Virus record (IMG/VR): IMGVR_UViG_2579778753_000004
From: a virus
Lineage: Duplodnaviria; Heunggongvirae; Uroviricota; Caudoviricetes
DNA: 34,205 bases
Reading direction: 5' to 3' (one strand)
Below, in pieces: positions 1 to 34,205 of this stretch; position 1 is the first letter of the stretch; each line of letters begins with the position of its first letter. The notes under the pieces were generated by a model that ran no database searches, was not told the DNA's origin, and was given only the letters and a program-made list of their open reading frames with translations. The position numbers were made by a program, and so were the translations under genes.

Positions 1-188
1 AATTTTGCGACCACGGTGCTTAACAAACTGGCGGAGAAGCTGGCCAAAGACCAGAACGGCGCAGATATTCCTGACCCGGCGCTCTTTGTCAAAAACCTTG
101 GTTTGGGAGATGCGAGCGGATACGTTGGTAGGCTGCTAAAAATACAGGTATTCACTGCCAGCGGGACAGTGACAAAAACGCCAGGCGC
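1..188. repeat. Left copy of inverted repeat (IR-L), coding, truncated by window edge
   Basis: Positions 1-188 are the exact reverse complement of 1681-1868 by hand alignment; identity stops at 189/1680. Both copies encode the same peptide NFATTVLNKLAEKLAKDQNGADIPDPALFVKNLGLGDASGYVGRLLKIQVFTASGTVTKTPGA. Confidence 0.9.
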
Positions 189-771
189 AAAAAAATGGCG
201 AATTAAATGTCTCGGTGGGGGGGGCGGCAGTTCAGCTGCACCGGCAACGGGTAGTAACGAGGTTTCCGTGAGTAACGGGGGCGGCGCAGGGGCATATGCT
301 GAGGGCATTTATGACGTATCGTCAATAACAACGGCGTCAGTCGTCATCGGTTCAGGCGGTGCAGGAGGAACGGCGGATTCAATATACGGCGCTGACGGCG
401 GAGCTAGCTCAGTTGGTTCGTTTATTTCATCGCCCGGCGGGAAAGTTGGATTACCCGCCGGCCCGGCAAACCCACCATTTCAGCCCGTGGCCAATACTAA
501 CAGCGATGGCCCGACTGGGTGGAATATTGTCGGCTCATCTGGAGCAGGGGCAGAACCAGCCGTAGCTGTTACATATAGCTATGCCGCTGGCTCGCGTGGT
601 TCAAATAGTATATTTGGGGTAGGCGGATCGATTCCTGCAATTAATGACCCGGCAAATCCCGGTGGGGGCTATGGTTCTGGAGCATCCGGCTGTTCGAATG
701 GCTCATCCCAACCAGCTAAATCAGGCGCAGCGGGACGCCCGGGAATCGTAATCATTGAGGAGCTGGCATAA
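1..771 (+). CDS. Alternative tail-fibre C-terminal module (silent orientation, 5'-partial, Gly-rich tip)
   Basis: Reading frame is open from position 1; the first 63 codons are the IR copy of the fibre constant region, then a unique Gly/Ser-rich C-terminus. No own start context; it would join the fibre N-terminus only after inversion. Confidence 0.6.
   Translation, partial: NFATTVLNKLAEKLAKDQNGADIPDPALFVKNLGLGDASGYVGRLLKIQVFTASGTVTKTPGAKKWRIKCLGGGGGSSAAPATGSNEVSVSNGGGAGAYAEGIYDVSSITTASVVIGSGGAGGTADSIYGADGGASSVGSFISSPGGKVGLPAGPANPPFQPVANTNSDGPTGWNIVGSSGAGAEPAVAVTYSYAAGSRGSNSIFGVGGSIPAINDPANPGGGYGSGASGCSNGSSQPAKSGAAGRPGIVIIEELA
85..110. other. Putative serine-invertase crossover site (hix/gix-like), left
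   Basis: TTTGTCAAAAACCTTGGTTTGGGAGA; its reverse complement shares the AAACCAAGGTTTTTGA core with hixL as I recall it (TTCTTGAAAACCAAGGTTTTTGATAA). Confidence 0.55.
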
Positions 772-1367: not shown

Positions 1368-2258
1368 CTACCGTCCTATCGAAATATAACTGAATCTGTA
1401 TTGCTGTGAGATATCACTGGTTGCCACACGCCACGCTGAATTACTGATATGTTCAAAATTTACAGACAAAACCTGCGGGGCAGGAATCGACGGGTCTGAC
1501 TGAACGGCATCAGACATAACACTGACTGAAACCATCGGCTGATTAGGGAATGGTATAGGGAAGTGTCCACTGATAAAGCGGGTCGTGTTTCCTGCAAAAG
1601 TGCCAAACTGAACAATATATCCACCTGGTAGCCTGAACCATCCCGAACCAGAAGCGAATGCTCCCATATCCGGTATCTGAGCGCCTGGCGTTTTTGTCAC
1701 TGTCCCGCTGGCAGTGAATACCTGTATTTTTAGCAGCCTACCAACGTATCCGCTCGCATCTCCCAAACCAAGGTTTTTGACAAAGAGCGCCGGGTCAGGA
1801 ATATCTGCGCCGTTCTGGTCTTTGGCCAGCTTCTCCGCCAGTTTGTTAAGCACCGTGGTCGCAAAATTCGGATCGTTACCGAGGGCATCCGCCAGCTCTT
1901 TAAGCGTATCCAGCGTCTCAGGGGCGCTGCCTGCAAGCGCTGCAAGTGCTTTGGCCACAAACTCAGTCGTCGCCAGCTTCTTGCTGTTATCGCTATTTGC
2001 AGGCGTGGGCGCTGTTGGCGTGCCGGTGAATGTCGGGCTGGCTTTCGGTGCGTACTGGGTATGCGGGTCTGCTGCCGCGATGTGTTTCGCAAGATCAGAA
2101 CCGCCTTTTTCAACCTGTTGCTTCAGGTACAGCGTGCGGCTGGCCAGTTGTTTACCCTGACGGTTAGAAATTCCGTCAGGCCCACCCAGAACGGGGTCAG
2201 AGACCTCAATCTGGTAGATGCCTTCTTCCCACTGCGGGGTTTCAGGTAGGTTTGCCAT
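1368..2258 (-). CDS. Tail fibre protein, currently expressed variant
   Basis: 296 aa; contains the TLDTLKELADALGNDPNFATT motif typical of fibre shafts; spans IR-R and a unique C-terminal tip. Confidence 0.8.
   Translation of the reverse strand: MANLPETPQWEEGIYQIEVSDPVLGGPDGISNRQGKQLASRTLYLKQQVEKGGSDLAKHIAAADPHTQYAPKASPTFTGTPTAPTPANSDNSKKLATTEFVAKALAALAGSAPETLDTLKELADALGNDPNFATTVLNKLAEKLAKDQNGADIPDPALFVKNLGLGDASGYVGRLLKIQVFTASGTVTKTPGAQIPDMGAFASGSGWFRLPGGYIVQFGTFAGNTTRFISGHFPIPFPNQPMVSVSVMSDAVQSDPSIPAPQVLSVNFEHISNSAWRVATSDISQQYRFSYISIGR
1681..1868. repeat. Right copy of inverted repeat (IR-R), inside the expressed tail-fibre gene
   Basis: Reverse complement of 1-188; may extend past 1868 because the partner is cut by the window start. 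Confidence 0.9.
1759..1784. other. Putative serine-invertase crossover site (hix/gix-like), right
   Basis: TCTCCCAAACCAAGGTTTTTGACAAA, the inverted partner of 85-110, lying inside IR-R. Confidence 0.55.
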
Positions 2259-2260
2259 AA

Positions 2261-2839
2261 TTAACTGCTCCCGTGGTTATAGCTACCGTCATAGTTGACG
2301 GTGTTGTTGTAGCGAATGGCGACAGACTGATACTCAAGGCTCGCCAGATGGCAGCGGGCCGGAGCAAAGGCAGCGAGCGTCTGGCGTAAAAGTGCTGCCT
2401 GATCGTTAGTAATGGGCTGCTGAAGGATGACGCGATAGACCGCCCAGGCTTCTGCATCGCCATGGACGAAAAGCCCGTTGTACGTGTGTTTGCCGTCGTA
2501 GCCAATCTGGCCAGTGCCTTCAATCAGATCCACTTCGCCGAAGCCGAAACGGCGGATAATTTCCCGGATTGACCACGGCGTCCCTTTATAGCGGTGCAGC
2601 TCGATAGCAGATTTGATAAGCATGCGGCGTACATCGTCCGATTCCGCCAGCTCCCAGCCATCGCCAAACAGCGAGAACTGCTCGCCCAGCCATGGCAGCG
2701 CGGAACTGTCGACGATATCGACGAGATAGACCATCAGTACGCTCAGGTCGATGTTATCCAGCCGCCCGGCCAGTTTTCCCAGCGTTCTGAGGCTGATATC
2801 ACCCTCAAGCGGCGGCGGGAGTTGTAGCGGCTCAGCCAT
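2261..2839 (-). CDS. Tail protein I-like (P2 gpI / Mu gp48 family)
   Basis: 192 aa between baseplate J-like and fibre genes, the conserved P2/Mu order. Confidence 0.65.
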   Translation of the reverse strand: MAEPLQLPPPLEGDISLRTLGKLAGRLDNIDLSVLMVYLVDIVDSSALPWLGEQFSLFGDGWELAESDDVRRMLIKSAIELHRYKGTPWSIREIIRRFGFGEVDLIEGTGQIGYDGKHTYNGLFVHGDAEAWAVYRVILQQPITNDQAALLRQTLAAFAPARCHLASLEYQSVAIRYNNTVNYDGSYNHGSS

Positions 2840-3935
2840 CGGACACCCCGGTCATGTTAAGAGTGATCGCCGTGCAGTTTGCCCATTCGTTTTCTGCCAC
2901 CACCTTCAGCACCGGTGTCACCAGTTCGACCTGGTAGACCCCGGCAACGGACAGCACGCTGATAATCTGGCTGGGGACAATATCGCGCCCCAGCGTGGCG
3001 GTACGGGACGCTACCCAGTTCTGTATGGCGCTGTTGGCGTTGTCCTTTATAGAGTTAGCATCCTGGTCACGATAGATAGTGATGTTGGCTTCAATGGCGT
3101 AATCCACCTGCACAGGTGTTTTAGCCCGCACGGTATCAGTGAGCGGCCTGACTTTTTCGTCCGAGCATAAACTCTCTACAAGCGTAAGGATGCTGTCGTC
3201 CGGCAAGCCGGTGCTGAGCAGCGGATACAGTTCTACAGTGCCGGGAACCGGGGAAAGCACGGCAACATCGACAATATTGGGATGGGCCTGCATGGCATGA
3301 AAGCGGTATGCCATACGGCTTCCGGCGTTGGTGAATGATTCCGGGGCCAGTTTGATACGCTCGCGGAGCCTGTCATTGTCTTCCTGCTCAGAACCGCCAG
3401 AACTGGCCGCCATATTGGTCACCTGCAGGTCGACGTTATCAATCTCATCGAGCAACTGACGGACCTGCGCAGGCTGCCAGCCGTTGCCTGCGGCTCCCGG
3501 CTCGGTACAGGTGGCCGTGGCATTGACAAGCAGCAATCCGGCTTTCAGCACTACGTCCGTATCGGTTGCAAAAATAATGCTGTCGGAAGCGCTGACGCGG
3601 GTACCTGCCGGAATCAGCACATCAATGGCCAGTTCCTCATCCACGGAGAACTGGAGCGTGGTGGTGGCAGGCTGCGCGGCCAGTCGGTATACACCAACCA
3701 GTTCACCGAGGTAATCAATCATCGGCTCACGGGCAAAGGCGACCAGATTCTGTTTGGCCGCTTCCTGCGCCGCCACCCTGACCAGCATTTCGCGGTATGC
3801 CCACAGGTCAATCAACAGGCGCTCAGCCTGAGCGGGGTATAGCGTCTTGCCAGTTGCGGCTTCGTACTGTGCAATCATTTCAGCCGTGATTTTGTCAGCA
3901 TCACGTTCAATAAAATCGGGTTCTGTCAGCGCCAT
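2832..3935 (-). CDS. Baseplate J-like protein (P2 gpJ / Mu gp47 family)
   Basis: 367 aa, position and size; overlaps neighbours by a few nt. Confidence 0.7.
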   Translation of the reverse strand: MALTEPDFIERDADKITAEMIAQYEAATGKTLYPAQAERLLIDLWAYREMLVRVAAQEAAKQNLVAFAREPMIDYLGELVGVYRLAAQPATTTLQFSVDEELAIDVLIPAGTRVSASDSIIFATDTDVVLKAGLLLVNATATCTEPGAAGNGWQPAQVRQLLDEIDNVDLQVTNMAASSGGSEQEDNDRLRERIKLAPESFTNAGSRMAYRFHAMQAHPNIVDVAVLSPVPGTVELYPLLSTGLPDDSILTLVESLCSDEKVRPLTDTVRAKTPVQVDYAIEANITIYRDQDANSIKDNANSAIQNWVASRTATLGRDIVPSQIISVLSVAGVYQVELVTPVLKVVAENEWANCTAITLNMTGVSDG

Positions 3936-4273: not shown

Positions 4274-4327
4274 GGGGGCAGTATTGCCCCTGTGCGGGAA
4301 CGCCGATATTAAAGGCGTTTAAGAAGG

Positions 4328-10068: not shown

Positions 10069-10135
10069 GATCGTGCTCCTGTGTAAGTTCAGAGCAGTAT
10101 GTCTGGTGGTGGGACTGGCAGATATTAAAGGGGAT

Positions 10136-10160
10136 TAAGAAGAAAGGGGCCGAAGCCCCT
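10136..10160 (-). terminator. Candidate intrinsic terminator after the small tail-operon ORF
   Basis: On the minus strand AGGGGC-UUCG-GCCCCU followed by UUUCUUCUUAAU, 6 nt after the stop of ORF 10167-10448. Confidence 0.5.
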
Positions 10161-14885: not shown

Positions 14886-15983
14886 TTACAGGCAGCGGGA
14901 GACAGCAGCGTCGTAGCTGATGCCTTCTTTTTTCGACAGTTCCAGCGCTTTCTGATGCAGCGCCAGACGTTCCGGGTCGGCTTCAGCGAACTCTGCTGAC
15001 GTCGTTTTGATCTCCGTGTTCACGCGGTCTTTGGTCGCGTGCTCACTGAAATTCAGTACCGGCTCAGTGCTGTCCAGCAGCGTCTTAAACGCCGTGGCCA
15101 GAGGGGTGCGGATATCGCCTTCGGCAAACTCAACCGGCTTGTCGCCTGCAGAGACCGCGTCCAGAATGGCCACGACAACCGACTTCGCTTTAGGAGCCAG
15201 TCGGCCATCGCCAACCAGCTTCTCGGCAAAGGAGACGTTGTCCGCGTGCAGTTTGTCCTGCTTAGCCTTCGCTTCCTGTTCCGCCCGCTGGGTGGCTTCC
15301 GCTTTCAGACGCGTGTTTTCCGCCTGAAGCGCTTTGATTTCGTCTTCAGTCATGGTGCTGTTCTCTTTTTGAGGGGTGGGATTGTGTTCACTGAAGTCCG
15401 GTTCAGACTTCCCGGTGTCGCGGTAAGCCTCTTCACGCAGGGAGTCCACCTGCCATGAAGGAAGCACCTTGTCGGTCTCGTCCAGCCCGAACTGGGCGAT
15501 CAGAAAATCGCGCAGACGGCCCCATAAAGAGGCATTGGTGATATCACTCCAGTCGGCAAACTCCACGACGCCTTCTTCTTTCTCACCAAACGAAACCTGC
15601 TTAAGCCCCTTAATGGACGGTGGCTGCGCCCCCAGAAAGCCGACATGACGCAGGTAAAGCGTGCCGGGCTTCGGGTTGTTCGGTGAGTCCGGGAGATAGA
15701 ACGAGGCTGAGACCTTCTTGAAGCGCCCGTTGCCCACCAGTTCGGCAAACTGCGGGTCGAGCTGGTCAGGCTCAGCCAGCAGATCGCCGCCGTTAAGCGA
15801 CAGGGATTTCACCCAGCCCCACGCCGGGTCTTCCGTTTTGGGGTGGCCAATAACGAGTGGTGCTTCATGGACGGACGGGTCATAGGCTTTCACGCAGGCG
15901 GCAAGATCGCTTTGCGTGAACGGCAGTTTCGTGCCGTGCATATCGGTATGAGTACCGGCTTTAAAAATGTGAATGGCTGGCAT
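14886..15983 (-). CDS. Prohead protease / scaffold (Mu I family)
   Basis: 365 aa; coiled-coil acidic C-terminal half with an in-frame internal ATG at 15353 (MTEDEIKALQ...) that could give a separate scaffold as in Mu I/Z. Confidence 0.8.
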   Translation of the reverse strand: MPAIHIFKAGTHTDMHGTKLPFTQSDLAACVKAYDPSVHEAPLVIGHPKTEDPAWGWVKSLSLNGGDLLAEPDQLDPQFAELVGNGRFKKVSASFYLPDSPNNPKPGTLYLRHVGFLGAQPPSIKGLKQVSFGEKEEGVVEFADWSDITNASLWGRLRDFLIAQFGLDETDKVLPSWQVDSLREEAYRDTGKSEPDFSEHNPTPQKENSTMTEDEIKALQAENTRLKAEATQRAEQEAKAKQDKLHADNVSFAEKLVGDGRLAPKAKSVVVAILDAVSAGDKPVEFAEGDIRTPLATAFKTLLDSTEPVLNFSEHATKDRVNTEIKTTSAEFAEADPERLALHQKALELSKKEGISYDAAVSRCL

Positions 15984-16116
15984 TTTGCTGTCCCGCGTTA
16001 CGTTGTCGGGGACAGTCTGTGGAAAAAGCGTCAGCAGCGCTTTTAATCTGCTTTAGAAAAAATCGGGGGTATCAGTACGGGGAATGTCACGCTGCGGGCG
16101 AATAGTGGTGCAAAGC

Positions 16117-16152
16117 GGGGGCTGTAAAGCCTTTATAAAGGTAATACAGCCC
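16117..16152. promoter_or_regulatory. 36-bp imperfect palindrome in the G-I intergenic gap
   Basis: GGGGCTGTA-AAG-CCTTTATAAAGG-TAA-TACAGCCCC: 9-bp outer arms plus a perfect 12-bp inner palindrome, in a 214-bp non-coding gap of an otherwise overlapping operon. Confidence 0.45.
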
Positions 16153-16197
16153 CTCAGCGGCTGGCAATGATAAATCACCCGCCTGCAGAGACAAAAC

Positions 16198-16656
16198 TCA
16201 GCGACGGGCCGCTGCTTCAAGATGGCGGACAATCGTATCGAGGATAGGGACAACCACTTCAGGCTGCAGCTCACCGTCCCCCGTCAGCGGCAGGAACGGA
16301 CGGGCAGGAAGTTCAACGGACTCATTACGCCCCGTTTTACCCCCAAACTGGTGAATCGGCCCATAAACGACATTAGTGCCAACCGCTGCCTGCCGGTCGT
16401 CATGGTCGGTTGATACCGACCCCATCAGACGCCCGGTATCCTGCAGCGTTTGCCCGTCGCGCTCCTGCGCTGCCAGCGAGGGAGTCCACCCCGGACGCCC
16501 CTCATCGAGAAAGTTAAACTGCGTTTCCGCCAGCAGGGTTCCGGCGATTTTGCGCATCGCGGGTTCCAGGTCTGTGGCAGCAAGATCCAGCGCACGGAGG
16601 CTCCGGCGCAGGGATTCATCGTTAATGGTGACATTGACCAGGTTATCGGAAGCCAT
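16198..16656 (-). CDS. Virion morphogenesis protein (Mu G family)
   Basis: Start reassigned to ATG at 16656 (MASDNLVNVTINDESL...) with RBS GAGAGGA; the ORF-track start at 16923 lies inside the F gene. Confidence 0.75.
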   Translation of the reverse strand: MASDNLVNVTINDESLRRSLRALDLAATDLEPAMRKIAGTLLAETQFNFLDEGRPGWTPSLAAQERDGQTLQDTGRLMGSVSTDHDDRQAAVGTNVVYGPIHQFGGKTGRNESVELPARPFLPLTGDGELQPEVVVPILDTIVRHLEAAARR

Positions 16657-17480: not shown

Positions 17481-18957
17481 GCAGACGCCCCCAGACAGTT
17501 GCAACAAACATAATCCGTGCCAGCCGTTCCTGCAGGTCTTCAGCGTTCATCTGCGGGTACAGCTCGGCCAGTTCGCCCAGCAGCTCAGACGGATTGACGC
17601 CATCTTCAACCCGCTTAAACAAAGGAGCCAGTACGGGTTCCAGCGTGCCATTTAACGCGCCTCCGTTCATCAGAATATCCAGCGCGTCGTCCAGGGCCTG
17701 CTGTGCCTGAATATCGGCATCAATAGCTTCGGCAAATGACAGCGGCAGCATGTTCTTCTGGCGTTCTGACGGTGGTGTCTCGTCAATATCACCGTCCTGC
17801 AGCTGGTACTCACGCTTGAAGTATTGCGGGGTGAAGACCACACCGGCGCGGCTGAGTTTCTCGTCGCGGGTTGCCTGGGTATCGTCGACCGTTCCCTGTT
17901 CCCACATCTTCCAGACGGGGCTGGCCACGTCGCCAAAGTTCATTGATACCGCCATCCTGATGGCCTGATTCACCGCGCTTTCCACGATATCAGCGTCAGC
18001 GTCACGGATATCATCAGTAACCTCCAGTCCGGCCTGCGCGGAGGCGCGGTTACTGTTGGCCTCGGTGGTCTGGTTCTGCCCCAGCAGGGCGATGGAGATT
18101 TCACTGCGGGCAAGCGTTATCAGGTTCTGATAAATATCGCTGCTGTCGGCCTTGCCTGCGGCCTCCTTAATTTCAATGGAGGAATCGTCGGGGATAGCGG
18201 CCACCGCGTCTTCCACCATTGCCTCCATGGAATCCAGCAGCAGGTCAATCTCACCCTGAGCGGTACCGCGCGGATGCTTGCCGATAACCCACGGTGAGCC
18301 ATATTTCTCGGCAAAGCGCACCCAGAACTTCATGCCGCCTTTTTTGAAGGTCACGGGCCAGAAGCACATCGACAGGTCAGGGAAGCCATACGGGTTATCG
18401 TAGGTCGCGTCCTGACGCGGTACCACAAACTTGTTCAGCGGTACCGGCTCGCCTTCCAGCCCGGCGTCCTTGGCGCGAAAGCGCAGCAGGTTGTCGTTGT
18501 CGAACTGGAACCACTCAGGGGGTTTACCTACGATATCGGCAATGGCCCAGGATTTAACAGAGCGTCCCCACATGATCTCACAGGGCTGATACCCGTAGAG
18601 AACGGCGTCGGTCATCTCGCCGATGATGCGGGACAGATCCAGATCGTCGAGCATATCCCGGATGAAGCTGAATACCCGCGCCGGGGCATGACCACGTTCA
18701 AGACCGCGCTCCAGCGATTTGACCGCCGCCTTACGCCTGCGGATGCAGCCACCGACCAGCGGGTCGGTACGCAGCTCGCGATAGATGCGGATATCCCGGC
18801 CCTGAGATTTCAGAATGGGGTCAGGGTTAGGCAGGTACATCCCCAGCCCGAAGAAGTCGATGGAACGGCTGCGCGAGGCGATCTGCTCCGTCAGTGTTTT
18901 ATTAGGTTCGGCAAATTTGACGAACTCACTGGGTGAAACCCAGAGTCCACGGGCCAT
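17461..18957 (-). CDS. Portal protein (Mu gp29 family)
   Basis: 498 aa between terminase large subunit and F. Confidence 0.8.
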   Translation of the reverse strand: MARGLWVSPSEFVKFAEPNKTLTEQIASRSRSIDFFGLGMYLPNPDPILKSQGRDIRIYRELRTDPLVGGCIRRRKAAVKSLERGLERGHAPARVFSFIRDMLDDLDLSRIIGEMTDAVLYGYQPCEIMWGRSVKSWAIADIVGKPPEWFQFDNDNLLRFRAKDAGLEGEPVPLNKFVVPRQDATYDNPYGFPDLSMCFWPVTFKKGGMKFWVRFAEKYGSPWVIGKHPRGTAQGEIDLLLDSMEAMVEDAVAAIPDDSSIEIKEAAGKADSSDIYQNLITLARSEISIALLGQNQTTEANSNRASAQAGLEVTDDIRDADADIVESAVNQAIRMAVSMNFGDVASPVWKMWEQGTVDDTQATRDEKLSRAGVVFTPQYFKREYQLQDGDIDETPPSERQKNMLPLSFAEAIDADIQAQQALDDALDILMNGGALNGTLEPVLAPLFKRVEDGVNPSELLGELAELYPQMNAEDLQERLARIMFVATVWGRLHERDNG

Positions 18958-23385: not shown

Positions 23386-23497
23386 GAGCGTCTCCTTGTG
23401 TAGTGGAGACAGCATCACAAATGGTCGGGGAAAGGGATTTTAAACAGCGTTAATAGTGAGGATGCAGACGTGAACCGCATGATGGCTTTGAAAGAAC

Positions 23498-23529: not shown

Positions 23530-23632
23530 ATCAACCCACAGGTATGCACTGTGAGCCGACCAGGGTTCAGTCAGTCTCGCGAGACCAGACTAGCCTGCCA
23601 TATTTTCATTGATTGCAAAAGGCTTACGGATA

Positions 23633-24403
23633 ATGAAAGAACAATCTTTACCCATCGTCCCATGGATTGGCGGTAAACGTCGTCTGGCGAAGCATATTTT
23701 ACCATTGTTTCCGGCCCATACCTGCTATGTGGAGCCGTTCTGCGGGGCAGCTGCGCTCTATTTCCTAAAGACTCCCAGCAAGACCGAAGTCATTAACGAT
23801 ATCAACGGGGAACTGGTGAACCTCTATCGGGTGGTCAAGCATCATCTGGAAGAATTTATTCGCCAGTTCAAATGGGCGCTGGTCAGCCGTCAGATTTACA
23901 AATGGTTGCAGGATACGCCGGAAGAAACGCTCACCGACATTCAGCGGGCGGCCCGGTTCTACTACCTGCAGAAACAGGCATTTGGCGGCAAGGTCGCCGA
24001 TCACACATTCGGTACCTCTACAACCAGTGCGCCGCGCTTCAATTTGCTGCGTATTGAGGAAGAACTGTCGATGGCACACCTGCGCCTGTCGAGAACGCTG
24101 ATAGAGCATCTGGACTGGCACCAGTGCATAGAGCGATATGATCGCCCGCATACGCTGTTCTACTGTGACCCACCGTACTGGGGAACGGAAGGCTATGGTG
24201 TGGAGTTCGGGCTGGAAAACTATGATCACATGGCAGATTTAGCGCGAAGGATCAAAGGGAAGATGATTATATCAGTGAACGATATCCCGGAAATGCGGCA
24301 GGTATTCAACGGTCTGAACATGCAGTCGGTTGATATCAGCTACAACCTTAAGGTAACAGGCAAACCCAGCCCGAAGAAAGAGCTGGTAATTTGTAATTTT
24401 TGA
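23633..24403 (+). CDS. DNA N6-adenine methyltransferase, Dam-like (orphan)
   Basis: N-terminal PWIGGKRRL and catalytic DPPY (YCDPPYWGTEGYG) motifs; start taken at ATG 23633 (the ORF track starts at a TTG at 23609). Confidence 0.8.
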   Translation: MKEQSLPIVPWIGGKRRLAKHILPLFPAHTCYVEPFCGAAALYFLKTPSKTEVINDINGELVNLYRVVKHHLEEFIRQFKWALVSRQIYKWLQDTPEETLTDIQRAARFYYLQKQAFGGKVADHTFGTSTTSAPRFNLLRIEEELSMAHLRLSRTLIEHLDWHQCIERYDRPHTLFYCDPPYWGTEGYGVEFGLENYDHMADLARRIKGKMIISVNDIPEMRQVFNGLNMQSVDISYNLKVTGKPSPKKELVICNF

Positions 24404-24450: not shown

Positions 24451-24984
24451 TTAATCCTGCCTTGGACAAGTCCAATAATCATTATCTGGCTCTGGTGAAT
24501 AAGCTTTCAAACAACCTGCTCGCGGGGTCTTACCATCATCTGTCATAGGAACTTTTTCCTTATCAAGTTTCACGGTCAGGTCTCCACCAGGAACATCCGT
24601 TTTATCGAAAAAAACAGCCTGACATGCTGATTTAGATATTTTCACTTCGTGGGCATTATTTGATATGAACAAATAACAATTATGACCAGAGGCTATGTAG
24701 TCACTTGGAATATTATTTTCGTCTTTAATATGAAACTGCACCGTTGTCACCGGGCGTTCGCTATCCTCGGATACTTCGACTTTTTCAAAACTGTCCGCGT
24801 ACTTATCCAGGCCGGGGAGTTGTTGGCGAATAAACGGTAATTCGCGATTTACAACCGGATTATCTGTTTCAACGCTAAAAACCGCGTGCTCCTTAGCTGT
24901 GGTGGACGTATCAGCAGGATCGGTATTATCTCCACACCCAGATAAAACAAATATCAACGGTAAAAATAATTTGCGCATAGTCAT
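24451..24984 (-). CDS. Secreted lipoprotein, low-GC accessory gene downstream of the repressor
   Basis: MTMRKLFLPLIFVLSGC lipobox LSGC; a hand count over 100 nt gave about 44% GC versus visibly GC-richer flanks; same strand as, and 36 bp downstream of, the repressor gene; RBS GAGGT. Confidence 0.7.
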   Translation of the reverse strand: MTMRKLFLPLIFVLSGCGDNTDPADTSTTAKEHAVFSVETDNPVVNRELPFIRQQLPGLDKYADSFEKVEVSEDSERPVTTVQFHIKDENNIPSDYIASGHNCYLFISNNAHEVKISKSACQAVFFDKTDVPGGDLTVKLDKEKVPMTDDGKTPRAGCLKAYSPEPDNDYWTCPRQD

Positions 24985-32549: not shown

Positions 32550-32967
32550 GCAGCGTCTTATTCAACTCATTCATATTGCCCGCAGCGACCTCCAGATGGA
32601 TGAGGACACCTACCGCCAGATGCTACAGGGGCTGACCGGCAAAGCCTCAACCAAAGGGATGGATACCCCACAACTAAACCGCGTGCTGGAATCAATGAAA
32701 AAGAAAGGCTTTCGCATTAAGCCTGCCGGGAAAGCCAAGTCCGGCTTACCGCTCGACAGCCATCCGCAGTCAAAGAAAATCCGTGCGCTATGGCTTGAAA
32801 TGGCTGCCGCAGGCATCGTCCGTGACAGTTCAGAGCAGGCGCTGGCGCTGTGGGTTAAACGGGAAACCGGCATCAGCGCGTTACGCTGGCTCAGCAATGA
32901 GCAGGCAAGTAGCGTGATTGAGAAACTGAAGAAGTGGCAGCGCAGAGCTGCGGGAGTGAAGCAATGA
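32539..32967 (+). CDS. gemA: GemA-like protein (Mu gp16 family)
   Basis: Start at ATGATG 32539 with RBS AAAGGAG; ...LIQLIHIARSDLQMDEDTYRQML... aligns with Mu GemA as I recall it. Confidence 0.65.
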   Translation: MMTKQRLIQLIHIARSDLQMDEDTYRQMLQGLTGKASTKGMDTPQLNRVLESMKKKGFRIKPAGKAKSGLPLDSHPQSKKIRALWLEMAAAGIVRDSSEQALALWVKRETGISALRWLSNEQASSVIEKLKKWQRRAAGVKQ

Positions 32968-33353
32968 GCGACCTGAATCAGTTTCGTAGTAAAGGGCCGG
33001 AACTGTTGGTGGAACTGGCACAGCATACCTCTGAGACTGTCCGCGAGATTATTGATATCGAACCCGCAGTTGCCGACCAGATTGGTCAGGCCGTCGCGAA
33101 CCGCATGATGCAGGTCTGGGGTGGGCAAAACGTCTATTTTCCGATGGGCATGGTCTGGAAGGTCAGCCAGCGCGACCGGGAAATTTTCCTGGAGTTTGAC
33201 GGGCGCAACCATCACGAACTGGCCCGCAAATTTGGTGTTTCACTACAGTGGGTTTACAGCGTGGTGAAGCGGGTCAGAAAAGAAGAACTGGATCGGATGC
33301 AGGGCAAACTGTTTGATGGCGAACCTGATGCCGATACAGGGAAAAAGGAGTAA
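32964..33353 (+). CDS. mor: Mor/C-family transcriptional activator
   Basis: ...VWGGQNVYFPMG...FDGRNHHELARKFGVSLQWVYSVVKR... aligns with Mu Mor (GGQ.VYIP ... FNGRN..EL...YGV....VY) from memory; ATGA overlap with gemA. Confidence 0.75.
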   Translation: MSDLNQFRSKGPELLVELAQHTSETVREIIDIEPAVADQIGQAVANRMMQVWGGQNVYFPMGMVWKVSQRDREIFLEFDGRNHHELARKFGVSLQWVYSVVKRVRKEELDRMQGKLFDGEPDADTGKKE

Positions 33354-33443: not shown

Positions 33444-33514
33444 CTTCCCATGTTGACCCAGTACTTCCCATAATTATCTCACTTATCCCCTGTCATTTAT
33501 CTCAAGTCTAATCA
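33444..33514. repeat. Prophage right terminus with subterminal direct repeats (putative transposase-binding sites)
   Basis: CTTCCCAT at 33444 and 33464 (20-bp period); TTATCTC at 33475 and 33498 (23-bp period); element ends ...AATCA at 33514. Confidence 0.55.
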
Positions 33515-34205
33515 GCTCACGGCCCTGATAGATAACGCCTTTTGAATCGCAAACCACGATGTTATGTTTTTGCAGACCCAGCGCTACCAGCAGGTTCATA
33601 CAGGCGATTGCTGCGGCACCCGCGCCGGAAACCACCATCCGCACGTCGGAGATGTTTTTCTCCACCACGCGCAAGCCGTTGAGGATGGCGGCAGTGCTGA
33701 TGATTGCCGTGCCGTGCTGATCGTCGTGGAATACCGGAATATTCATCCGCTCGCGCAGTTTCTGTTCAATATAGAAACATTCTGGCGCTTTAATGTCTTC
33801 GAGGTTGATTCCGCCGAAGGTCGGTTCGAGCGCAGCGACAACTTCAATAAATTTGTCCGGGTCGAGTTCATCAACTTCAATGTCAAATACATCAATCCCG
33901 GCGAATTTCTTAAACAGAACGCCCTTGCCTTCCATCACCGGTTTGCCAGCCAGCGCGCCAATGTTGCCTAACCCCAGCACCGCCGTACCGTTAGAGATCA
34001 CCGCCACCAGGTTACCGCGCGCGGTATATTTGTAGGCTTTTAACGGGTCTTTTTCGATTTCAAGACAAGGTGCGGCAACGCCTGGTGAGTAGGCCAGCGC
34101 CAGATCGCGCTGCGTTGCCAGAGGCTTGGTTGGAGAAACCTGGATTTTCCCTGGAACTGGAAATTCATGGAAATCAAGTGCACTTTGTTTTAACTGGTCA
34201 TCCAT
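33483..34205 (-). pseudogene. maeB: maeB 5' fragment (NADP-dependent malic enzyme) interrupted by the prophage
   Basis: The translation matches the N-terminal ~229 residues of E. coli MaeB as I recall them ([53 protein letters not shown]...GVIYQGRE), then diverges into [10 protein letters not shown]-stop read from phage DNA. Host-derived DNA is 33515-34205. Confidence 0.8.

Follow-up and report, generated by a model that had tools for sequence, protein, structure and literature searches.

What do BcepMu-like transposable phages keep between the head genes G and I? In Pseudomonas Mu-like phages, the anti-CRISPR (acr-aca) locus lies between G and the protease/scaffold gene, and the original prediction viewed the equivalent junction of virus record IMGVR_UViG_2579778753_000004 as an empty anti-CRISPR position that carries a strong imperfect 36-bp palindrome and that might hold, by analogy with Mu, an activator-dependent late promoter for the I operon. 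The window, i.e., the whole 34,205-nucleotide (nt) stretch analyzed here, bears its late genes on the minus strand, and all junction features and sister promoters described below lie on that strand unless indicated otherwise; no strand is assigned to the palindrome as a whole. The gap between the stop codon of G (16198 to 16200) and the start of the I-equivalent gene (15983) extends over 214 bp (15984 to 16197). Its predicted limits proved right, as did the lack of a convincing open reading frame (ORF), since no conserved ORF was found. The gap thus contains no gene, but it is a densely functional control junction. The explanation that we prefer, with moderate confidence, is that it marks the boundary of two late units, at which a well-supported promoter of the Mu P_I type is combined with a separate palindromic boundary element, the latter being a tentative assignment.

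Conserved blocks in the G-I gap

About 400 loci with relatives of the I protein (designated by L numbers) were fetched from GTDB genomes and IMG/VR, and their G-I gaps were aligned. Most of the fetched relatives have gaps of 150 to 260 nt. Those of the enterobacterial relatives measure 197 to 218 bp and fall into classes that are unalignable over most of their length. Three blocks are kept across these enterobacterial classes: CCTTTATAAAGG(C)TTTACAGCC, which is the right half of the palindrome; TTTTTTCTAAAGCAGATTAAAAGC, the late-promoter block; and ACTGTCC...GGGACAGCAAAATG, which harbors an inverted repeat.

A predicted late promoter for the I operon and its regulon

The late-promoter block of the window features the box TAAAGCAGATTAAAAG (16040 to 16055), a predicted site for the Mor-family activator that is repeated at other late operons and in BcepMu. 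It is followed by a 20-nt spacer of fixed length and free sequence (16020 to 16039) and by a predicted −10 hexamer, CAGACT (16014 to 16019; pattern NANNNT), exactly 20 nt past the box. The −10 position alone places the putative transcription start of the I operon at about 16007 (16005 to 16009). This geometry is shared by nearly all unique I-upstream regions bearing the box: NANNNT occurs exactly 20 nt past it in 97 of 98, with varying spacer sequences and with hexamers that include CAGACT, CAAACT, GACACT, GAAACT, GATGAT, GATCAT, and GACCAT. The same arrangement of box, spacer, and hexamer was seen in KP12, PhiKM, and BcepMu. The regions upstream of the holin gene provided an independent test. 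The 80 holin loci fetched yielded 54 unique upstream regions, and every one of the 54 shows the box, the 20 nt, and NANNNT. In BcepMu, the 18-mer TAAAGCCGATTAAAAGAC is present in exactly two copies (0 expected), one in the G-I gap and the other 51 nt before the holin start codon. The pair in the window consists of TAAAGCAGATTAAAA (16055 to 16041) and TAACGCTGTTTAAAA (23452 to 23438, before the holin gene), and allowing up to one mismatch revealed no others.

Position matrices built from one promoter class recovered the other class and two further sites. Sister late promoters are accordingly predicted before the holin gene (TAACGCTGTTTAAAAT-20-GATGCT, 23411 to 23452), the tail-chaperone gene (10096 to 10137, directly preceded by a canonical terminator at 10160 to 10138), and the baseplate gene W (4280 to 4321, with an ATG 6 nt past the −10). 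The pattern of the whole regulon reads TA(A/G)N6(C/T)T(A/T/G)A(A/T)A(G/T), exactly 20 nt, and NANNNT. This composite pattern matches exactly 4 sites in each of the window, "Klebsiella phage KP12," and BcepMu, with 0.115 expected per shuffled window, and all the sites are located on the late strand directly upstream of syntenic operon starts (holin, I, tail-chaperone, and baseplate W).

The box promoters have no consensus −35 element, and the 3′ end of the box occupies the −35 position. With the hexamer set at −12 to −7, the box covers about −48 to −33. The start codon of I lies 6 to 7 nt past the hexamer in the Burkholderia-type phages, and in BcepMu it is too close to the box for the latter to be located further upstream than the −35 region. 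In Mu, Mor and C bind adjoining the −35 region. The candidate activator is encoded by a Mor/C-family late activator gene on the plus strand (32934 to 33353; PF08765, E = 1.3e-42; phrog_532), whose product shares 53% identity with BcepMu gp01 and nearly matches it throughout the helix-turn-helix stretch. Collectively, the comparative evidence lends good support to a predicted activator-dependent late promoter in the gap, the likely counterpart of the C-dependent Mu P_I, for the I (protease/scaffold)-capsid operon; from the same comparisons, we infer that the activator binds the box and that transcription of I starts near 16007. No description of BcepMu late promoters was found in the literature searched. 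The idea of a late promoter in the gap was therefore right in substance and wrong in location. The promoter is in the gap, at the position of Mu P_I, but not at the palindrome where the original prediction had sought it, because the shared box (16055 to 16040) is situated about 63 nt downstream and the other three late promoters lack any such palindrome. We predict that the Mor-family protein would shift the box, not the palindrome.

Two further elements were observed in this family. The more distant L101-like clade has neither the box nor the palindrome core described below; its I-upstream region shows the direct repeat ATTAACGC-N3-ATTAACGC (e.g., L101 3830 to 3850), which is perhaps a different activator box. 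In the window, a perfect 12-bp palindrome, GTCTCGCGAGAC (23574 to 23585), is located between a divergent DNA methyltransferase gene (23609 to 24403, plus strand) and the holin promoter, and it may be an operator.

Inverted repeats over putative transcription starts

The inverted repeat of the third conserved block (15988 to 16015) is made up of CTGTCCC (16015 to 16009) and GGGACAG (15994 to 15988). It starts within the −10 hexamer, straddles the putative start, and ends over the I ribosome-binding site. Repeats occupy the same position at the holin promoter (GTCTCC/GGAGAC, 23410 to 23390) and the tail promoter (TGCTC/GAGCA, 10097 to 10073), and in Burkholderia-type promoters, repeats of the GCCGCC/GGCGGC type enclose the −10 hexamer in their loop. 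A compensatory pair was found among the I-upstream regions, namely, GTCTC...GAGAC in L289 versus GCCTC...GAGGC in L290. Both arms could be present only in RNA that starts upstream, and we infer that the repeats block translation of read-through transcripts. A hairpin hiding the I ribosome-binding site would form in the read-through RNA from G alone. Such start-straddling inverted repeats suggest a simple way to bar translation of read-through RNA.

The short distance between the −10 and the start codon implies putative leaderless mRNAs for the baseplate gene W of the window (4280 to 4273) and for the Burkholderia-type I gene. The same spacing (6 to 7 nt) is also seen at L103 18849 to 18862 and 30811 to 30823 and at many Burkholderia-type loci. 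The start annotated for BcepMu gp32 (18850) probably lies four codons too far upstream, the likely start being the ATG at 18862.

Anatomy and conservation of the palindrome

The palindrome (16118 to 16153) consists of two 18-nt arms (16118 to 16135 and 16136 to 16153) that abut without a spacer at the center TTTATAAA and are complementary at 15 of 18 pairs (83%). It lies 45 nt past the G stop codon. The claim that this is a strong imperfect palindrome held up well: the predicted fold has −22.7 kcal/mol against a shuffle mean of −10.3, with none of the 300 left-flank shuffles as stable, and the window contains no second copy at three mismatches or fewer (0 expected). Neither the palindrome nor its core or arms recur elsewhere in the window or in BcepMu. 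Relative to the putative I start, the palindrome covers about −146 to −111, 63 nt upstream of the box, from which it is separated by a poorly conserved spacer (16062 to 16117).

Alignments delimited a conserved core, CCTTTATAAAGG plus CTTTACAG (16122 to 16141). Within it, enterobacterial and Burkholderia relatives have an identical TTTATAAAG(G), which is present as a single copy per genome and is the only part of the palindrome common to the enterobacterial and Burkholderia-type lineages. The left arm is unconserved in the Erwinia-like class and partly kept in the Pectobacterium class. The G-I gap of BcepMu has CCCGTAAAG-TTTTATAAAGG-CTTTACGGG, i.e., the same core between arms that are different yet complementary, and TAAAGCCGATTAAAAGAC follows 70 nt beyond. 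Complementary arms indeed surround this core in several lineages with unrelated arms (GGGGCTGTA, CCCGTAAAG, GCGGC, and GGGGCTT). Long arms are significant in the window-like, L288, BcepMu, and L410 lineages and absent from the Erwinia-like, L289-like, and L311/L324 lineages. The core itself is absent from L373, L381, and the whole L101-like clade. The distance between the core and the −10 ranges from 100 to 128 nt and shows no helical phasing.

The stem of the window-like class displays no compensatory change, only one-sided (G.U) or disruptive ones, and the sense RNA fold has no consistent stability preference over the antisense fold. Rfam 15 gave no covariance-model match at E ≤ 1 on either strand of 15800 to 16400. 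Selection on the palindrome at the RNA level was discarded, given the changes in the window-like stem and the strand comparison, the long hairpin being significant in some lineages and missing in others. We also rejected the core motifs TATAAA as a −10 and TTTACA as a −35, as neither has a suitably spaced partner hexamer that is kept across classes. Similarly, the core is not a transposase end-type site, because the BcepMu ends carry CGCGATATTTC-type repeats that are unlike it. The core 16-mer also occurs in unrelated AT-rich phages, where it corresponds to an upstream element plus a −35, which shows that many of the >120 core matches in IMG/VR are chance or unrelated.

Possible functions of the palindrome

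We tentatively favor a terminator-like boundary hairpin over a central gyrase site. The palindrome would serve as a boundary element where the lysis-terminase-portal-F-G unit has its 3′ end; as an RNA hairpin, it would attenuate or terminate read-through, or stabilize the upstream 3′ end, and it would insulate P_I in the manner of the lys terminator just upstream of Mu P_I. Beyond it, the Mor-family activator would bind the 16-nt box at 16055 to 16040, overlapping the −35 region, and transcription would start near 16007 from the −10 CAGACT (16019 to 16014) past the 20-nt spacer. Consistently with this reading, the stem-loop is GC-rich, stable, and placed at the end of a transcription unit, as terminators are. 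U-rich tails follow the hairpin in the PhiKM-type (TGTTTTAT), the L048/L249-type (TGTTTTCC in the L048 type), and BcepMu (TTTGGTT) sequences. The phage has a canonical intrinsic terminator (AGGGGC-TTCG-GCCCCT with a T-run, 10160 to 10138) that abuts the box at its tail junction; its BcepMu equivalent is located at 24512 to 24537, and in Mu a predicted terminator precedes P_I. The cargo genes of L015 and L315 described below lie between the G stop and the hairpins, which therefore stay on the promoter side. Several observations weigh against the boundary reading as a whole. The 3′ tail of the window hairpin, CGCUUUGC (CGCTTTGC), has only 3 U, and the terminator consensus scan made no call. An invariant loop sequence is not required of a terminator. 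The invariant AT-rich core implies a further, sequence-specific role. The long arms are missing from the Erwinia-like, L289-like, and L311/L324 lineages. The window-like class shows no compensatory change, the sense strand is not consistently preferred, and the core is lost in L373, L381, and the L101-like clade while box-bearing or other promoters persist. On the promoter side, the degenerate composite pattern was refined once the sites were known.

A sequence-specific role could be that of a central strong gyrase site (SGS) like the Mu SGS, formed by the palindrome alone or together with motif 0 (GGCGGGTGATTTATCATTGCC, 16163 to 16183), which alignments show to be conserved in the window-like, Erwinia-like, and L289-like classes. 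Gyrase acting at the prophage middle would extrude a supercoiled loop and thereby pair the ends for replicative transposition. We judge this unlikely, though deserving of attention. The Mu SGS is cut at 17879/17880, within the same G-I gap and just ahead of the predicted terminator and P_I. The site has to be central, and efficient Mu replication depends on it (PMC10052514; PMC3820752). The palindrome of the window is near the estimated prophage center (an estimate, with the right end at ∼33,475 and the left end outside the window), and that of BcepMu is at 51% of the genome; the central position is nonetheless a consequence of gene order and does not count as independent evidence. The core occurs once per genome and does not belong to the promoter regulon. 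Its conservation extends across hosts that have in common only host enzymes such as gyrase. Deformable gyrase G-segments have been described, and the core is a TATA-like, TA-step-rich short palindrome of that kind (PMC13284261). In addition, the G-I gap is ∼115 bp longer than the terminator-plus-promoter tail junction. However, similarity between the Mu SGS region and the window gap does not exceed that of shuffles, the resemblances of GCGGGTGATTT to the SGS core and of motif 0 to the Mu gyrase-site core are within chance, and some relatives lack the core. According to a review (PMC10052514), Mu replication was not supported by the other sites tested, apart from the one from the closely related Sakai prophage. 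Matching to the published 133-bp gyrase consensus was discarded, since it missed the Mu SGS used as the positive control, and this scoring is thus uninformative either way. A shade less probable again is the specific proposal that the TTTATAAAGG core with its GC-rich arms represents central strong gyrase sites of a second class, unrelated in sequence, in BcepMu-like phages. If this were true, a central gyrase site would have been kept from Enterobacterales to Burkholderia phages, promoting prophage-end synapsis as the Mu SGS does. Quite doubtful, too, is recognition of the core by a DNA-binding protein other than the late activator, either a host nucleoid protein or a phage regulator, that could modulate P_I, block read-through, or organize the prophage. 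The 10- to 12-bp perfect palindrome CCTTTATAAAGG, unique in the genome and invariant while its flanks change, fits protein recognition better than a plain terminator, but no candidate protein was identified, no known enterobacterial consensus was recognized in the core by eye, the 100 to 128 nt to the promoter are unphased, and some lineages have lost the core without losing the promoter. The Mor-family activator itself is a highly improbable ligand of the palindrome. The phage has a Mor-family gene and the palindrome is a dyad upstream of I, which invites the idea of an operator for the I promoter, and the plus-strand sequence TAAAGCCTTTATAAAG has a weak resemblance to the box (rank 7 in a matrix scan). 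Nevertheless, the shared box lies elsewhere, and no such palindrome occurs at the other three late promoters. At −111 to −146, the palindrome is remote from the −35 region that Mor/C sites adjoin in Mu and is separated from the promoter by a variable, unphased distance. Moreover, its arms are unconserved even though the activators of the window and BcepMu have nearly identical helix-turn-helix stretches. The terminator-like boundary hairpin remains our preferred, if tentative, assignment for the palindrome.

Reading frames and accessory genes at the junction

A 41-amino-acid (aa) ORF with a GTG start is annotated in KP12 and corresponds to 16053 to 16178 of the window. It is open in the window, KP12, and PhiKM, in the last of these by means of two offsetting indels. 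We rejected it as a gene and consider it extremely unlikely that the gap encodes this small protein: the GTG start lacks a clear ribosome-binding site, the ORF has no PHROG match, and its C-terminal half is unconserved in PhiKM, where it is unrelated to that of the window. Furthermore, the Erwinia-like class has a 1-nt deletion in the conserved nucleotide block (AAAGG-TTTACAGCC versus AAAGGCTTTACAGCC), and the frame therefore shifts although the nucleotides stay conserved. The consensus scan also picked out a short terminator-like hairpin (16199 to 16214) that covers the stop codon of G and precedes AGTTTTGTCT; its conservation is uninformative because it lies within coding sequence.

The 401 nt around the gap were found in 637 of 5,426 complete Escherichia coli genomes (∼12%), ST131 strains included. 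We inspected 40 of these E. coli matches, evenly spread down the ranking of the 637 genomes. All 40 are single uninterrupted matches of 323 to 401 nt across the gap, and the only PGAP features under them are G and the downstream gene. Several distant relatives, by comparison, bear accessory genes at this junction. L015 (Brenneria, 2349 to 3780) encodes a 301-aa protein of the endonuclease/exonuclease/phosphatase family and a 177-aa protein without a family match. PADLOC gave nothing convincing on this pair, which may be an accessory or defense module, and L018 (Symbiopectobacterium, 2342 to 3787) contains a decayed, fragmented copy of it. In L315 (Burkholderia-type, 1986 to 3000), the cargo encodes a Tlde1-domain protein and a small membrane protein. 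Among L381, L373, L408, L413, L349, L400, L393, and L412, we found DUF2158, unassigned 102-aa, 73-aa small lipoprotein-like, FRG, DUF4145, HNH, or DUF2335 proteins, and the loci with cargo include several of the L101-like clade. The junction is thus a recurrent insertion site in the wider family, and the anti-CRISPR analogy stands in position only. Distant relatives do carry cargo at the same junction, none of it recognizable as Acr or Aca, and the analogy does not extend to the window itself, whose gap (15984 to 16197) has no acr-sized conserved ORF and no helix-turn-helix aca gene.

The presence of this cargo (the L015 and L315 genes and those for DUF2158, FRG, DUF4145, HNH, and DUF2335 proteins) could also mean that the gap is the empty shell of an anti-CRISPR-type locus, with the palindrome and a σ70-like match just upstream of it (TTGTCT-16-TATCAT, 16167 to 16194; 9 of 12 positions) as the leftover operator and promoter of lost genes. 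We regard this as very unlikely. The −10 part of the match lies inside a conserved block, but the −35 part is kept only in the window-like class; no Aca-like helix-turn-helix gene is present; and the core is kept from E. coli to Burkholderia phages without cargo. In L015 and L315, the cargo is upstream of the hairpins and core, and the palindrome is therefore not a cargo promoter or operator. The phylogenetic spread of the core also suggests that it is older than all of the cargo insertions.

The phage and its relatives

From 21025 down to 13552, the late genes of the window are ordered as terminase small subunit (PF11985), large terminase, Mu-type portal (PF06074), F (PF04233), and G (PF05069), followed by the gap and then by the genes for a 365-aa protein (phrog_976), the major capsid protein, and a cement protein. 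G, a virion morphogenesis protein gene (16198 to 16656; PF05069, E = 1.7e-22), is the last gene of the upstream late unit and has an equivalent coding sequence in KP12 and PhiKM. The I-equivalent gene (14886 to 15983) encodes the 365-aa head maturation protease/scaffold (phrog_976, E = 2e-157), which is 49% identical to BcepMu gp32. The early genes on the plus strand specify a Ner-like regulator, an rve-type transposase, an AAA+ B-like protein, and the Mor-family activator. This is the BcepMu arrangement, and the phage is a BcepMu-like transposable prophage.

Over this region, identity is 100% with Escherichia phage Phi06_2974 B, 95.5% with KP12, and 84% with PhiKM, which is classified in Bcepmuvirus. 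The family is also represented in Klebsiella, Erwinia, Pectobacterium, and Burkholderia. The KP12 record (L001; OM835952, "Klebsiella phage KP12 clone KP12_2") is filed under Vequintavirinae, but its genes are those of a BcepMu-like transposable phage, and it probably represents a co-isolated prophage. On the minus strand, 33483 to 34205 appears host-like by eye and may encode the N terminus of an NADP-malic-enzyme-like protein. If it is host sequence, the right prophage end would be near 33,475. The left end of the window (1 to 300) lies inside tail-fiber genes, and the left prophage end is thus outside the window.

Comparison with known systems

The junction provides a testable map of late transcription, with four promoters, one activator box, and a fixed geometry, in ∼12% of complete E. 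coli genomes, and this map places predicted Mor-family binding at the box rather than at the palindrome. It also extends to the BcepMu-like family the notion of the G-I junction as a recurrent landing site for accessory genes, and its conserved central element offers a handle on whether a central gyrase site is general to transposable phages or specific to Mu.

The G-I region of Mu is a close counterpart. Both gaps are syntenic, lead from G to the protease/scaffold gene I, are similar in length (196 bp in Mu versus 214 bp), and are located near the genome center, with a hairpin with an AT-rich apex ahead of an activator-dependent late promoter, which in the window is predicted. Both phages also have four late promoters, those of the window again being predicted, and an activator of the Mor/C family. 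The differences are nonetheless clear. The two gaps have no detectable sequence similarity (not above shuffles), and the box TAAAGCnGATTAAAAG of the window is unlike the CCCGCACCT-type sequence common to Mu P_lys and P_I; the predicted activator box is thus a variant, not the same box as the Mu C or Mor sites. Besides, the window phage has one Mor-family gene instead of the Mor-then-C cascade, its transposase is of the rve type, and its early region is inverted with respect to the late genes. The acr-aca locus of Pseudomonas phages shares the head-module junction, at which relatives of the window phage also carry varied accessory genes, but in these relatives the palindrome is downstream of the cargo where cargo is present. 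A further likeness is internal to the phage, at the terminator-promoter boundary of the tail junction (10160 to 10096), where a GC-rich hairpin also ends a late unit upstream of a box-type promoter. That hairpin has a canonical 6-bp stem, a TTCG loop, and a T-run, and it touches the box, whereas the G-I palindrome is long, with internal mismatches, an invariant AT-rich apex, and a weak U-tail, and is placed 63 nt from the box.

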